Below are positions 1-3,278 of a DNA stretch of 64,000 bases, in pieces; within the stretch, counting starts at the first letter, position 1, and every line of letters starts with the position of its first letter. The notes under the pieces were generated by a model, which saw only the letters and a list, made by a program, of their open reading frames with translations, was not told the DNA's origin and did no database searches. Made by a program: the position numbers and the translations under genes. Location: assembly GCF_056746865.1 (NCBI RefSeq), contig NZ_CM163382.1, one strand, 5' to 3'.

Positions 1-1274
1 AGGCGTAACACTTTGCTGACATCCTGTGTCCAGATGTATGACGCGAGGCCGTACTCCACGTCGTTTGCCAGGCGCAGACCTTCGGCTTCGTCTTTAAACG
101 GCAGCAGGCAGGCGACCGGCCCGAAAATCTCTTCCTGGGCGACGCGCATACGGTTATCTACGTCTGCCAGCACCGTTGGGCGCAGGAAGTTGCCGCCTTT
201 CAGATGTGCAGGCAGGTCAGACGGTTTATCCGGGCCGCCCGCCAGCAGGGTTGCGCCTTCTTCAATGCCGAGACGGATATAGCCAGAGACTTTTTCCCAG
301 TGCTGCTGGCTGATAAGCGCCCCAACCTGGGTATTTGGATCGTTCGGATCGCCCACGCGCAGACGGTTGGCGCGTTCGGCAAAACGTTTTACGAATTCCG
401 GGTAGATGCTTTGCTGAATAAAGATGCGCGAACCGGCGGTGCAGCGTTCGCCGTTGATCGAGAAGATGGTGAACAGGGCGGCGTCCAGCGCGCGTTCAAT
501 ATCGGCATCTTCAAAAATCAGCACCGGCGATTTACCGCCCAGTTCCATGGAGTATTTTTTCAGCCCGGCGTTTTTCATGATGTTGCGCCCGGTGGCCGTA
601 CCGCCGGTGAACGACACGGCACGTACGTCATGATGACGAACCAGCGCATCGCCTGCGGTTGCGCCGTAGCCCTGTACCACGTTCAGCACGCCCGCCGGAA
701 TACCGGCTTCCAGCGCCAGCTCACCCAGGCGGTCGGCGGTCAGCGGGGAGAGTTCCGACATCTTCAGCACCGCGGTATTGCCCAGCGCCAGACACGGCGC
801 GACCTTCCAGGTGGCGGTCATAAACGGCACGTTCCACGGCGATACCAGCGCACAAACGCCCACCGGCTGCACCAGCGTGTAGTTGAGCATCTTGTCATCA
901 ACCGGATAGGTTTTGCCGTTCATCTGCTGGCAGACTTCCGCGAAAAATTCAAAGTTGTGAGAAGCGCGTGGGATCAACACATTTTTGGTCTGATGGATCG
1001 GCAGGCCCGTGTCCGCGGTTTCCATCGCGGCGATCTCAGGCACGTTCTGGTCGATCAGATCGCCCAGACGGCGCATCAGGCGCGCACGCTCTTTCATCGG
1101 CAGATTGGCCCATTTCGGGAACGCCTCTTTCGCTGCCGCTACCGCCTGATTGATCTCCGCTTCACCGCCAGAGGCCACATCCGCCAGCACTTCACCCGTT
1201 GCCGGATTGGTGGTCTGGAAGTAGTCGTTACCTGCAACATTTTTGCCGTTGATCCAATGGTTTATTTTTTTCAT
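1..1274 (-). CDS. hpaE: 5-carboxymethyl-2-hydroxymuconate semialdehyde dehydrogenase (NAD-dependent aldehyde dehydrogenase), 3' end beyond window start
   Basis: Minus-strand frame starting at ATG 1274 (overlapping hpaG stop, ATGA) reads MKKINHWINGKNVAG... aldehyde dehydrogenase N-terminus; reading frame continues open to position 1; the plus-strand ORF 204..1430 in the track is its antisense shadow. Confidence 0.8.
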   Translation of the reverse strand, partial: MKKINHWINGKNVAGNDYFQTTNPATGEVLADVASGGEAEINQAVAAAKEAFPKWANLPMKERARLMRRLGDLIDQNVPEIAAMETADTGLPIHQTKNVLIPRASHNFEFFAEVCQQMNGKTYPVDDKMLNYTLVQPVGVCALVSPWNVPFMTATWKVAPCLALGNTAVLKMSELSPLTADRLGELALEAGIPAGVLNVVQGYGATAGDALVRHHDVRAVSFTGGTATGRNIMKNAGLKKYSMELGGKSPVLIFEDADIERALDAALFTIFSINGERCTAGSRIFIQQSIYPEFVKRFAERANRLRVGDPNDPNTQVGALISQQHWEKVSGYIRLGIEEGATLLAGGPDKPSDLPAHLKGGNFLRPTVLADVDNRMRVAQEEIFGPVACLLPFKDEAEGLRLANDVEYGLASYIWTQDVSKVLR

Positions 1275-2566
1275 TTCGCTGTATCCTCACTCACAATTCG
1301 GTTCACCAGGCGGCCCACGCCTTCTACTTCCACCACAACTTCATCGCCAGGCACCACGTCAGATAAGCCTTTTGGTGTGCCGGTGGCGATCATGTCGCCC
1401 GGATTCAGGGTCATAAATTCGCTTAAGTAGGCGATCAGGAAGGGCACGCTGAAGATCAGATCGGCGGTGGTGCCTTGCTGGCGCAGTTCGCCGTTGACGA
1501 AGGTGCGAAGGGTCAGATTATGCGGGTCCGGGATCGCCTCTTTCGGCACGATGGTTGAAAGCATCGGCGTCAGTCCGTCGCGGCTTTTTACCCGCAGGTT
1601 AGGGCGGTAGTAGTTTTCCAGATAGTCGCGAATGGCGTAGTCGTTACACACGGTGTAGCCCGCGACATAATCCATAGCATCGGCTTCGCTGACGTTACGC
1701 GCCTGCTTGCCAATCACCACCACCAGCTCCGCTTCGTAGTGCATATATTCAATATTGTTCGGGCGCACGGAGGTCTGGTTATCGCCAGTGAGGGTATTCG
1801 GCGCTTTCAGGAACACCAGCGGTTCTTCCGGTGGCTTAAATTCCAGTTCGCTGGCGTGGTCGGCGTAGTTCAGGCCGAGGGCAAACAGCGTGCCGTGCGG
1901 GTGTGGCTGCGTTGGGAAGCTCTTGCGCGTGGTCACTTCACGTTCGTCCACTACCGGATTTTCCAGCGGCGGGAAACCTTCTGCGAGAACACGCACGCGA
2001 TCGCCTGGCTGTATTTCCACGCGCGCCTGTGGCGTGCCGAGCAGAATGGCATCGCCTGGATTCAGCGTGGCAAATTCGCTCAGAGCGCTCAGCAACTGCG
2101 CGGCGTTACGTTGTAAATCGGCGGTGTTCCAATGATCGGCAGGACGCCCGTTGATCTCGGTATAGATAGTCAGATTATCGACATTGCTGAGAGCCACGGT
2201 TTCGCCAATGGGGCAGAATCCATCACGACATTTTGCTTTGATTGCCGGGCGGTAAAAGCTCTCTTCCGGCAGGCTGACGTCGTTAGCCAGCGCATATCCG
2301 GCGATGTACTCTGCCGCATCTTCTTCACGTACTTTCGTCGCCGTTTTCCCCACAATCAGCGCAACAGTCGCACCGCTCAGTACTTTTTCACCCTGTGGAA
2401 AGGGAATCGGTTCACCGCAACCAATCACCGTATTGCGCGGTTTAATAAACCAGACCGCAGTTTTAGGCGGGGCTTTGTAGGGGGATTGCTGGAACGCTTC
2501 CTGCCATGCATCAAGTTGGCTGCGATGGTTCAACGCTACGGCGAAGATAGTGCCTTTCATTACCAC
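1271..2566 (-). CDS. hpaG: bifunctional 2-hydroxyhepta-2,4-diene-1,7-dioate isomerase / 5-carboxymethyl-2-oxo-hex-3-ene-1,7-dioate decarboxylase (FAH-family, duplicated domain)
   Basis: 431-aa ORF with two FAH-like repeats; recognised as HpaG of homoprotocatechuate pathway; followed by hpaE with 4-bp overlap. Confidence 0.85.
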   Translation of the reverse strand: MVMKGTIFAVALNHRSQLDAWQEAFQQSPYKAPPKTAVWFIKPRNTVIGCGEPIPFPQGEKVLSGATVALIVGKTATKVREEDAAEYIAGYALANDVSLPEESFYRPAIKAKCRDGFCPIGETVALSNVDNLTIYTEINGRPADHWNTADLQRNAAQLLSALSEFATLNPGDAILLGTPQARVEIQPGDRVRVLAEGFPPLENPVVDEREVTTRKSFPTQPHPHGTLFALGLNYADHASELEFKPPEEPLVFLKAPNTLTGDNQTSVRPNNIEYMHYEAELVVVIGKQARNVSEADAMDYVAGYTVCNDYAIRDYLENYYRPNLRVKSRDGLTPMLSTIVPKEAIPDPHNLTLRTFVNGELRQQGTTADLIFSVPFLIAYLSEFMTLNPGDMIATGTPKGLSDVVPGDEVVVEVEGVGRLVNRIVSEDTAK

Positions 2567-2586
2567 TCCTCGGATTCGATCATCTT

Positions 2587-2608
2587 AATCATTAATATGT
2601 TAATGATT
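2587..2608. promoter_or_regulatory. perfect 9-bp inverted repeat AATCATTAA-N4-TTAATGATT in hpaG/hpaR divergent region; candidate MarR-type (HpaR) operator
   Basis: Palindrome read directly from sequence, 21 bp upstream of hpaG start; similar TTAATGATT motifs recur further into the intergenic region. Confidence 0.4.
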
Positions 2609-2831
2609 ACTTTTATTCCCGATTGCGTAGTTTGGCAAAAGTAAGTGATGTAAATGTGATCTAATTAACAAACTATTTACATTTGCAGGTAATAAAATAC
2701 TAAATATCAGTAAGTTAATAAAGTATGCTCAATTTTGATAAAATGAGGAATTGCGGGGATAGCTCAGTCCCGGTAACGTGATGATTAACTGTTTCTATAT
2801 TAATGATTTTGAATTTTTCAGGGGAAAGATA

Positions 2832-3278
2832 ATGCACGACTCACTAACCATTGCGTTGCTCCAGGCGCGAGAAGCGGCGATGAGTTATTTTCGCCCAATC
2901 GTTAAACGGCATAATTTGACTGAGCAACAGTGGCGCATCGTGCGTATTCTGGCGGAAAGCCCATCAATGGATTTTCACGATCTGGCGTATCGCGCCTGCA
3001 TTTTGCGCCCAAGCCTGACCGGGATCCTCACGCGGATGGAACGCGACGGTTTAGTGTTGCGATTAAAGCCGATCAATGATCAGCGGAAGCTCTATATCTC
3101 GCTGACCAAAGAGGGGCAGGCGCTGTATAACCGCGCTCAGACACAGATTGAAGAGGCCTATCGGCAGATTGAAGCTCAGTTTACTGCCGAGAAAATGCAA
3201 CAGTTAACCCATCTGTTAGAGGAATTTATTGCTCTGGGTAATTCCCGACAAGAAGACATCCCGGGCGATAATGAATAA
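2832..3278 (+). CDS. hpaR: MarR-family repressor of the hpa meta-cleavage operon
   Basis: ORF-track frame 2778..3278; start trimmed to ATG 2832 (MHDSLTIALLQ...) giving 148 aa; MarR winged-helix pattern; divergent from hpaG. Confidence 0.8.
   Translation: MHDSLTIALLQAREAAMSYFRPIVKRHNLTEQQWRIVRILAESPSMDFHDLAYRACILRPSLTGILTRMERDGLVLRLKPINDQRKLYISLTKEGQALYNRAQTQIEEAYRQIEAQFTAEKMQQLTHLLEEFIALGNSRQEDIPGDNE

Follow-up and report, generated by a model that had tools for sequence, protein, structure and literature searches.

The DNA analysed here, a stretch of 64,000 nucleotides referred to as the window, opens among genes for the degradation of 4-hydroxyphenylacetate, close to tsr, and carries a perfect palindrome in the control region between the divergent genes hpaG and hpaR. 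Two questions arise from this locus: to which chromosomal region the left end of the window belongs, and whether the palindrome serves as an operator for the repressor HpaR. We are highly confident that positions 1-3335 form the right end of a chromosomal island, the hpa island between btsT and tsr with its genes for 4-hydroxyphenylacetate/homoprotocatechuate catabolism, that this island occurs in many E. coli but not in K-12, and that the palindrome is the promoter-proximal HpaR operator. Recognising the end of the hpa genes and an HpaR operator in the window is correct but already known, and nothing about it is new.

Location and distribution of the hpa island

Identity to known hpa genes was high. 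Positions 1-3400 were 97.9% identical at the DNA level to E. coli W, and hpaE, hpaG, hpaR and tsr were annotated under the match. A genome that was 100% identical over the same positions contained hpaDFHI, hpaXA, hpaBC and btsT on the left side, and the same was found in W and B. The hpa cluster thus sits between btsT, also called yjiY, and tsr, and this position was seen in both B (REL606) and W. The cluster was also found in strain WG5, which we take to be a derivative of E. coli C.

When positions 1-3400 were used as query, the K-12 derivatives JM109 and C600 matched just 3336-3400, and in C600 btsT directly adjoins tsr. A BLAST search with the btsT-tsr spacer of C600 against an hpa+ genome supported the junction at 3335..3336. 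The preliminary description had placed the cluster in strains of the B, C and W types, had considered it absent from K-12 and had deduced a non-K-12 background. The matches to REL606, W and WG5, together with those to JM109 and C600 beginning only at approx. 3336, agree with the first two statements, and the third is true. It says little, however, because approx. 38% of 5,426 complete E. coli genomes carry the region (2072 hpa+ genomes in the complete set). Strains B, C and W use 4-HPA, whereas K-12 does not (PMC7180172). Beyond annotation little is at stake here; the result assigns the window to an accessory locus, btsT-tsr, of a non-K-12 E. coli.

Gene content and arrangement

The genes and sites discussed in this work are collected in Table 1. 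A partial hpaE, hpaG and a divergent MarR-type hpaR had been recognised earlier upstream of tsr, and profile matches as well as annotation confirmed all of them. For hpaE the best match was TIGR02299 (HpaE), with 624 bits over profile positions 1-424 of 488; this is just below the cut-off of 638, solely because 64 C-terminal residues fall outside the window. hpaG matched NF011750 over its full length (1-429) with 979 bits against a cut-off of 811, and the models for the N-terminal and the C-terminal domain of this two-domain protein each scored above their cut-off. hpaR matched TIGR02337 (HpaR) with 201 bits, the cut-off being 121. Its product is the RefSeq protein WP_000543916.1, the same accession as in E. 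coli W, B REL606 and others, and shows full-length homology to the solved MarR-family structures 5AIP, 2FBI and 7EL2. In RefSeq, a genome with the identical sequence over positions 1-25000 of the window is annotated with the same coordinates for hpaE, hpaG, hpaR and tsr.

hpaE lies immediately downstream of hpaG, the stop codon of hpaG and the start codon of hpaE overlapping in ATGA at 1271-1274. The two are the first genes of the hpaGEDFHI meta-cleavage operon, transcribed leftward, and hpaR is transcribed rightward from the same control region. This region comprises 271 bp with 69% A+T.

Table 1. Genes, boundary and regulatory sites at the left end of the window
Feature	Position	Strand	Details
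hpaE (5-carboxymethyl-2-hydroxymuconate semialdehyde dehydrogenase)	1..1274	minus	first 424 of 488 codons; 3' end left of the window
hpaG (bifunctional isomerase/decarboxylase, homoprotocatechuate meta pathway)	1271..2560	minus	429 aa
Promoter-proximal HpaR operator, putative (site 1)	2586..2609		perfect palindrome TAATCATTAA-TATG-TTAATGATTA; 10-nt arms 2586-2595 and 2600-2609
hpaG promoter, inferred (Pg)	2610..2638	minus	-35 TTGCCA 2638..2633, 17-nt spacer, -10 TAAAAG 2615..2610
CRP-like site	2655..2670		TGTGA-TCTAAT-TAACA; centre 65 bp from palindrome centre
IHF consensus match, candidate	2705..2717	plus	WATCARNNNNTTR (TATCAGTAAGTTA); sequence match
hpaR promoter, predicted (Pr)	2715..2744	plus	-35 TTAATA, 18-nt spacer, TG-extended -10 TAAAAT; start approx. 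2751 (promoter scan)
Second, imperfect HpaR operator, putative (site 2)	2787..2808		AACTGTTTC-TATA-TTAATGATT; perfect right half-site; 200 bp from site 1
hpaR (MarR-type repressor)	2832..3278	plus	148 aa; divergent from hpaG
Right-hand boundary of DNA absent from K-12	3335..3336		from 3336 rightward common with K-12 (tsr promoter region)
tsr (serine chemoreceptor)	3397..5061	plus	554 aa; NF011615, 1222 bits, full length; conserved right-hand neighbour

The promoter-proximal palindrome and its conservation

The sequence AATCATTAA-TATG-TTAATGATT (AATCATTAATATGTTAATGATT) occurs at exactly 2587..2608, where a perfect palindrome with an N4 centre had been described, and its arms even reach 10 nt. 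We presume that the palindrome at 2586..2609 is the site published under the name OPR1. E. coli W and B have the identical sequence. On its own, the palindrome is no more than moderately improbable as a chance event: among 5000 dinucleotide shuffles of the intergenic region, 135 (2.7%) contained some inverted repeat whose 9-nt arms match perfectly around a loop of 0-10 nt. Approximately nine distinct repeats of this kind were present in the 64 kb window, and site 1 was the only A+T-rich one among them. For the palindrome pattern with at most 3 mismatches, the number of occurrences expected in the 64 kb window is 0.03, which is a less fair test as the pattern was derived from the sequence itself.

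That the palindrome is a real element follows from its conservation across species. We compared 78 divergent hpaG/hpaR intergenic regions, namely that of the window and those of 77 other fetched Enterobacterales loci. A sequence related to site 1 was found in all 78, from Escherichia to Photorhabdus, with scores of 12-18 out of 18 (at least 14 in 64 of the 78), compared to means of approx. 11-12 for shuffled sequences. Its distance upstream from the hpaG ATG was 24-44 nt in 77 of the regions, the exception being Photorhabdus luminescens with 169 nt. Within 46 Enterobacteriaceae intergenic regions the core of the site, TCATTAA-YATR-TTAATGA at 2590-2607, had an identity of at least 95% at most positions and never below 70%; the flanking intergenic bases diverged while the core and its position stayed. 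The arms covaried, with 48 C and 13 T in the left arm and 48 G and 13 A in the right one. The left C and the right G change together, so the dyad symmetry is kept.

The proposal that the palindrome is a candidate HpaR operator is upheld by its identity in W, in which HpaR operators have been mapped, and by its fixed place beside hpaG across Enterobacterales. The word candidate even understates its status, since there is experimental work characterising this operator (Galán et al. 2003, as far as the citing papers describe it). Sequence identity to W and these secondary descriptions make the palindrome a likely equivalent of the operator footprinted in W.

Predicted promoters and further sites in the control region

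A simple consensus scan for promoters and terminators did not report an hpaG promoter, as the -10 element of Pg is without the final T. We therefore inferred the start sites and read Pg from conserved blocks instead; TTTTAT and TTGGCAAA in the Pg region are conserved across species. The hpaG transcript is predicted to start at approx. 2599-2604, within the right arm of the palindrome.

The preliminary description had missed both the CRP-like site and the second operator at approx. 2787-2808. The CRP-like site agreed with 8-9 of 10 consensus positions and was present in all 77 distinct intergenic regions, at an offset of +67 to +69 from the operator start (+68/+69 in 76 of the 77). It falls in a conserved block of the alignment of the 46 Enterobacteriaceae intergenic regions. 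Of the 77 distinct regions, 40 had an exact match to the IHF consensus, offset from the operator by 117-119.

Site 2 is presumably the site published as OPR2. It was picked up both as direct repeat family D1 and as inverted pair I1. E. coli W has the same sequence here, and 2800-2807 form a conserved block. Compared with site 1, site 2 in E. coli scores 13/18, which is within the range of shuffled sequences (maximum 14-15). We took the site as real because of its conserved position and not because of its score: the distance between site 1 and site 2 was 189-205 nt, with a mode of 199, in all loci. Its centre lies at approx. +47 of the predicted hpaR promoter start (approx. 2751). Judged by sequence, the control region thus has the operator pair of HpaR, one site at the predicted start of the hpaG promoter as in W and a related one near +47 of the hpaR promoter.

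Alternative explanations of the palindrome

Could the palindrome be bound mainly by another A+T-favouring protein, such as FabR, Fis, IHF or H-NS, instead of HpaR? The A+T content of the region would suit such a protein, and in Salmonella FabR was located at the hpaR/hpaG intergenic region by ChIP (PMC4804515). Deletion of fabR in Salmonella, however, left hpa expression unchanged (PMC4804515), and the FabR core motif ACAnnTGTnnnnT was absent from the hpaG/hpaR intergenic region when both strands were searched. A conserved IHF consensus match is indeed nearby (2705-2717), but it lies approx. 100 bp from the palindrome and not inside it. The palindrome, with its dyad symmetry, its TTAA-N4-TTAA core and a second site as its partner, instead agrees with footprinted HpaR sites (PMC7180172). 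We consider binding mainly by another protein very unlikely.

Still less probable is that the palindrome is not a DNA operator but acts in RNA, where it would form a 5'-terminal hairpin of the hpaG mRNA and influence the stability or the translation of the transcript. A leader transcribed from a start at the palindrome or upstream of it could form a stem of 10 bp with a 4-nt loop, and the changes from C/G to T/A in the arms are compensatory. The predicted fold is nevertheless weak (-8 kcal/mol); 39 of 200 shuffles folded equally well, and at a z-score of -0.84 the hairpin was rejected. With the inferred hpaG start within the right arm, the full hairpin would not be transcribed. Furthermore, the stem shows no higher conservation than the loop bases and the unpaired flanks, the related site 2 does not form a hairpin, and an Rfam search of positions 1-6500 gave no credible RNA family. 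A chance A+T-rich sequence without function would be in line with the 2.7% of shuffles that yield some perfect repeat, but it is hardly conceivable given that position and core are kept in 78 intergenic regions from Escherichia to Photorhabdus while the flanks diverge; the conservation data had already refuted it. A DNA operator bound by HpaR is the reading that we follow below.

Regulatory model

HpaR, a winged-helix protein of the MarR family, would bind as a dimer to the palindrome at 2586-2609. As the palindrome starts right after the inferred -10 element and covers the inferred hpaG start, bound HpaR would block RNA polymerase. The second and weaker operator, 200 bp or approx. 19 helical turns away and near +47 of the hpaR transcript, may serve autoregulation, and both sites together could form the published cooperative "repression loop". 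The pathway aromatic 4-HPA would release HpaR; Galán and co-workers reportedly found that 3-HPA and homoprotocatechuate do so as well, and they are said to have placed one HpaR operator at the start of the hpaG promoter. The CRP-like site, centred approx. 60 bp upstream of the start, could mediate catabolite control. In this model HpaR binding, the inducers and looping are taken from the literature and not from our analysis, and the promoter hexamers and starts are our predictions.

In E. coli W HpaR represses hpaGEDFHI and hpaR (PMC7180172). Two targets of HpaR, one of them at approx. +47 of the hpaR promoter, and a proposed repression loop are described where PMC6888825 cites Galán 2003. For the effector step the evidence differs between species, since purified HpaR of Serratia plymuthica did not bind 4-HPA or 3,4-HPA in calorimetry (PMC10364317). 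With an intact regulatory region, the source strain probably regulates the degradation of 4-hydroxyphenylacetate like strain W.

The comparative result consists of the consensus TCATTAA-YATR-TTAATGA, the spacing of approx. 199 bp and the fixed CRP-like site, and it confirms the published model. Together these may be of some use for builders of biosensors based on HpaR and Pg. We regard it as a rather doubtful extension that the spacing (approx. 19 turns, from Escherichia to Hafnia/Photorhabdus) reflects an obligatory, phase-locked HpaR loop and not a peculiarity of W, and that the minority intergenic allele tunes hpaR autoregulation in a manner unlike W.

Comparison with known systems

The hpa cluster of E. 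coli W has the same genes, gene order and btsT-tsr position (Prieto et al. 1996; Galán et al. 2001, 2003). The HpaR proteins are identical, that of W being a characterised one, and both operators agree base for base. The intergenic region differs from that of W by 16 substitutions, all between the operators at 2685-2765 (80 bp), over Pr and the region of the IHF consensus match. The intergenic allele of the window, at an identity of at least 99%, was present in 156 of the 2072 hpa+ genomes. E. coli W additionally carries pac (penicillin G acylase) further left. In E. coli B (REL606) the cluster is at the same locus and encodes the same HpaR protein, and HpaR is identical to HpcR of E. coli C, where the genes are named hpc (PMC7180172). 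The palindrome of strain WG5 is imperfect because of a C-to-T change in the left arm, AATTATTAA.

In a text search of the literature for OPR1/OPR2 only papers on plant oxophytodienoate reductases matched, and papers on PcaV and MepR named HpaR solely in their reference lists. The HpaR of an L-DOPA biosensor preprint turned out to be a different protein, of the TetR type.

In Yersinia pseudotuberculosis a MarR-type HpaR represses the hpa-meta operon, and DNase I footprints revealed two TTAA-N4-TTAA sites, described as "similar to E. coli W" (PMC7180172). As in the window, one site is at the core promoter and another approx. 180-200 bp away (PMC7180172). In contrast to the cluster studied here, the genes form a single hpaG1G2EDFHIXBC operon, HpaA is missing, and the proximal site, whose centre is at -8, lies over the -10 element of the hpaG1 promoter; the Yersinia HpaR also activates T6SS4 (PMC7180172). 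The closest solved relatives of HpaR are NadR of Neisseria meningitidis (5AIP, E = 6e-44) and HpaR of Acinetobacter baumannii (7EL2, 1e-32). NadR, a 4-HPA-responsive protein, shares approx. 50% identity with HpaR of E. coli (PMC2791445), but its target is an adhesin gene and not a catabolic operon. For both NadR and A. baumannii HpaR, operator sequences and genomic contexts differ from those of the window.

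The hpa cluster and its distribution

The preliminary description placed the left end of the window in the hpa cluster for 4-hydroxyphenylacetate (4-HPA) degradation, next to tsr. This placement was confirmed by profile matches and by 97.9% identity of window 1-3400 to E. coli W; several clinical isolates were 100% identical over the same stretch. The four genes are annotated at the same coordinates in a RefSeq genome that shows no differences across window 1-25000, and the hpaG stop overlaps the hpaE start in the ATGA at 1271-1274.

Genes at the left end of the window, with profile evidence
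Gene	Coordinates	Strand	Product	Evidence
hpaE	1274 to window edge	minus	424 codons	HpaE equivalog model, profile positions 1-424 of 488
hpaG	2560..1271	minus	429 aa	HpaG bifunctional isomerase/decarboxylase model, full length, 979 bits (cut-off 811)
hpaR	2832..3278	plus	148 aa, MarR-type	HpaR equivalog, 201 bits (cut-off 121)
tsr	3397..5061	plus		profile match

The cluster had also been said to be absent from K-12 and present in B, C and W-type strains, and both statements held. In the K-12 derivatives JM109 and C600 the match was limited to 3336-3400, and in C600 tsr directly adjoins btsT. Alignment of the C600 btsT-tsr spacer to an hpa-positive genome revealed ~11.3 kb (hpaC to hpaR) in place of a 133 bp K-12-specific spacer, with the right junction of the island at window 3335/3336. 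The whole cluster (hpaBC, hpaA, hpaX, hpaIHFDEG, hpaR) was found at this locus in E. coli B REL606 and in strain W, which have the HpaR accession WP_000543916.1 in common, and the cluster was also found in the E. coli C derivative WG5. At least 80% of window 1-3400 was covered in 2069 of 5426 complete genomes (about 38%), so the cluster says little about lineage. 4-HPA is used by strains B, C and W, not by K-12 (PMC7180172).

In E. coli BS-04 (NZ_CP172819.1 4470159-4470669) the btsT-side spacer runs into the hpaG-hpaR spacer halfway along it, with the latter kept only rightward of about window 2625. This remnant lacks the operator and hpaG, has a degenerate hpaR 5' end and carries no annotation; it resembles a scar left by deletion of the hpa island. 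The btsT-hpaC spacer of FDAARGOS_497 (fetched locus 3724-3853, outside the window) contains an extra block of ~130 bp just downstream of btsT, without counterpart in K-12, which resembles an ERIC/IRU repeat (…GTAAGCTCCCGGGGATTCACTCA…).

A conserved, very probable operator pair between hpaG and hpaR

The palindrome in the spacer between the divergent hpaG and hpaR (site 1) had been located exactly: AATCATTAA-TATG-TTAATGATT occupies 2587-2608, and its perfect arms are even longer than described, reaching 10 nt at 2586-2609. Judged alone, it exceeds chance only moderately. In this 69% A+T intergenic region 2.7% of dinucleotide shuffles contained a perfect inverted repeat with 9-nt arms, and the 64-kb window holds ~9 distinct repeats of this kind, all of which, the palindrome aside, are G+C-rich and look like terminator hairpins.

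The comparative evidence was stronger. Eighty loci encoding HpaR relatives of 64-99% identity were fetched from different Enterobacterales species; a divergent hpaG homologue lay 260-516 bp from hpaR in 77 of them, and the remaining three were incomplete. A best palindrome-like site near hpaG was located in all 78 regions (the 77 loci and the window itself), 24-44 nt upstream of the hpaG start codon with the sole exception of Photorhabdus luminescens (169 nt). It scored 12-18 of 18, and at least 14 in 64 of the 78, with shuffle means of ~11-12. Across 61 distinct versions the consensus was TTCATTAA-YATR-TTAATGA with invariant TTAA...TTAA bases; a single position in the arms varies, and does so on both sides together (C/G in 48 versions, T/A in 13), and the outermost A/T pairs completing the perfect 9-10-nt arms occur in E. 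coli only. Because of this conservation a chance origin of the palindrome was excluded.

The 4-nt spacer of the palindrome (2596-2599) was TATG, the reverse complement CATA (E. coli SCPM-O-B-8794, Pseudenterobacter, Kluyvera) or the fully symmetric TATA or CATG; it is effectively YATR, with the whole site occurring in either orientation.

Site 2 (2785-2808), a weaker sequence with the consensus ATTrTTtA-N4-TTAATgAt, was found 189-205 nt from site 1 (mode 199) in all loci; in the window the distance is 200 bp and the right half-site TTAATGATT is perfect. Conserved between the sites were the blocks TTTTAT and TTGGCAAA and a CRP-like TGTGA-N6-TAACA (2655-2670), the latter at a constant offset in all 77 distinct regions, and an exact IHF consensus match (2705-2717) was kept in 40 of the 77. 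Two short, strongly conserved blocks on either side of the CRP-like site, AAGTGA (2643-2648) and TTTACATT (2676-2683), belong to an inverted repeat, ATGTAAAT / ATTTACAT, at which a further protein, Fis or IHF for example, possibly acts.

When the 271-bp spacer was compared with that of strain W, both sites were identical. The 16 differences all fell between them, at 2685-2765. It is this stretch of the spacer that varies, and it takes in both the predicted hpaR promoter and the match to the IHF consensus. This spacer allele (at least 99% identity) was present in only 156 of 2072 hpa-positive genomes; in most, the spacer was 94-96% identical to it, below the identity of the flanking genes.

Promoters and proposed repression

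On the hpaG strand the TTTTAT and TTGGCAAA blocks were read as -10 TAAAAG and -35 TTGCCA of a putative promoter with a 17-nt spacer. As this -10 ends at 2610, adjoining the palindrome, transcription would start in the right arm of the palindrome (about 2599-2604), where a bound repressor dimer would occlude RNA polymerase. For hpaR, a promoter scan predicted a -10 at 2739-2744 and a start near 2751, which would centre site 2 at +47. Galán et al. in 2003 reportedly named the operators OPR1 (a palindrome over the hpaG promoter start) and OPR2, and are said to have centred a CRP site at -61.5, consistent with the geometry found here. The 200-bp spacing (~19 turns) sets both sites on the same helix face. 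The predicted +47 agrees with the position of HpaR binding reported for the hpaR promoter in PMC6888825, which cites Galán et al. 2003 and also mentions a proposed repression loop between the two HpaR targets. In Yersinia two HpaR sites of TTAA-N4-TTAA type were footprinted, 'similar to E. coli W', in a paper that also describes HpaR as repressing hpaGEDFHI along with its own gene (PMC7180172).

As an alternative, folding of the hpaG leader RNA into a hairpin was weak, at -8 kcal/mol with a z-score of -0.84; the inferred hpaG start would truncate such a hairpin, and Rfam gave no family match. FabR was also considered as a binder of the spacer, since in Salmonella it was found on the hpaG-hpaR spacer by ChIP; however, loss of fabR was there without effect on hpa expression (PMC4804515), and the FabR core motif is absent from the spacer in the window.

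Neighbouring genes

The L-galactonate transporter gene lgoT (5110-6471, minus) is interrupted at codon 279, where TGG has become an in-frame TAG (W279*, stop codon 5635-5637), and is therefore a pseudogene in this genome. Genomes that match window 1-25000 exactly carry the RefSeq label 'internal stop' for this gene, and the copies in K-12, W and B are intact. The genes tsr and lgoT converge on a spacer with a perfect inverted repeat, TGCCCGATAA-N8-TTATCGGGCA (5074-5101), which is likely a bidirectional terminator. Close to its C-terminus, Tsr has seven consecutive glutamines (Q7, 4951-4971) in this genome as in W (554 aa), and four (Q4) in K-12 C600 and in B REL606 (551 aa), so that the number of CAG/CAA triplets is polymorphic; in FDAARGOS_497, which is identical over 1-3400, another deletion gives a Tsr of 543 aa.

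Relation to the known HpaR system

All defining features of the hpa cluster and the HpaR operator pair that sequence can test were found, and we identified the region as the hpa cluster of E. coli W, B and C with its HpaR operator pair. The palindrome, proposed earlier as a candidate HpaR operator, is very probably the operator already known; it is identical in strain W, and a related site was located in every region compared. The biochemical features are already published for the identical protein and identical sites, and the comparative footprint is the sole addition to what is known.
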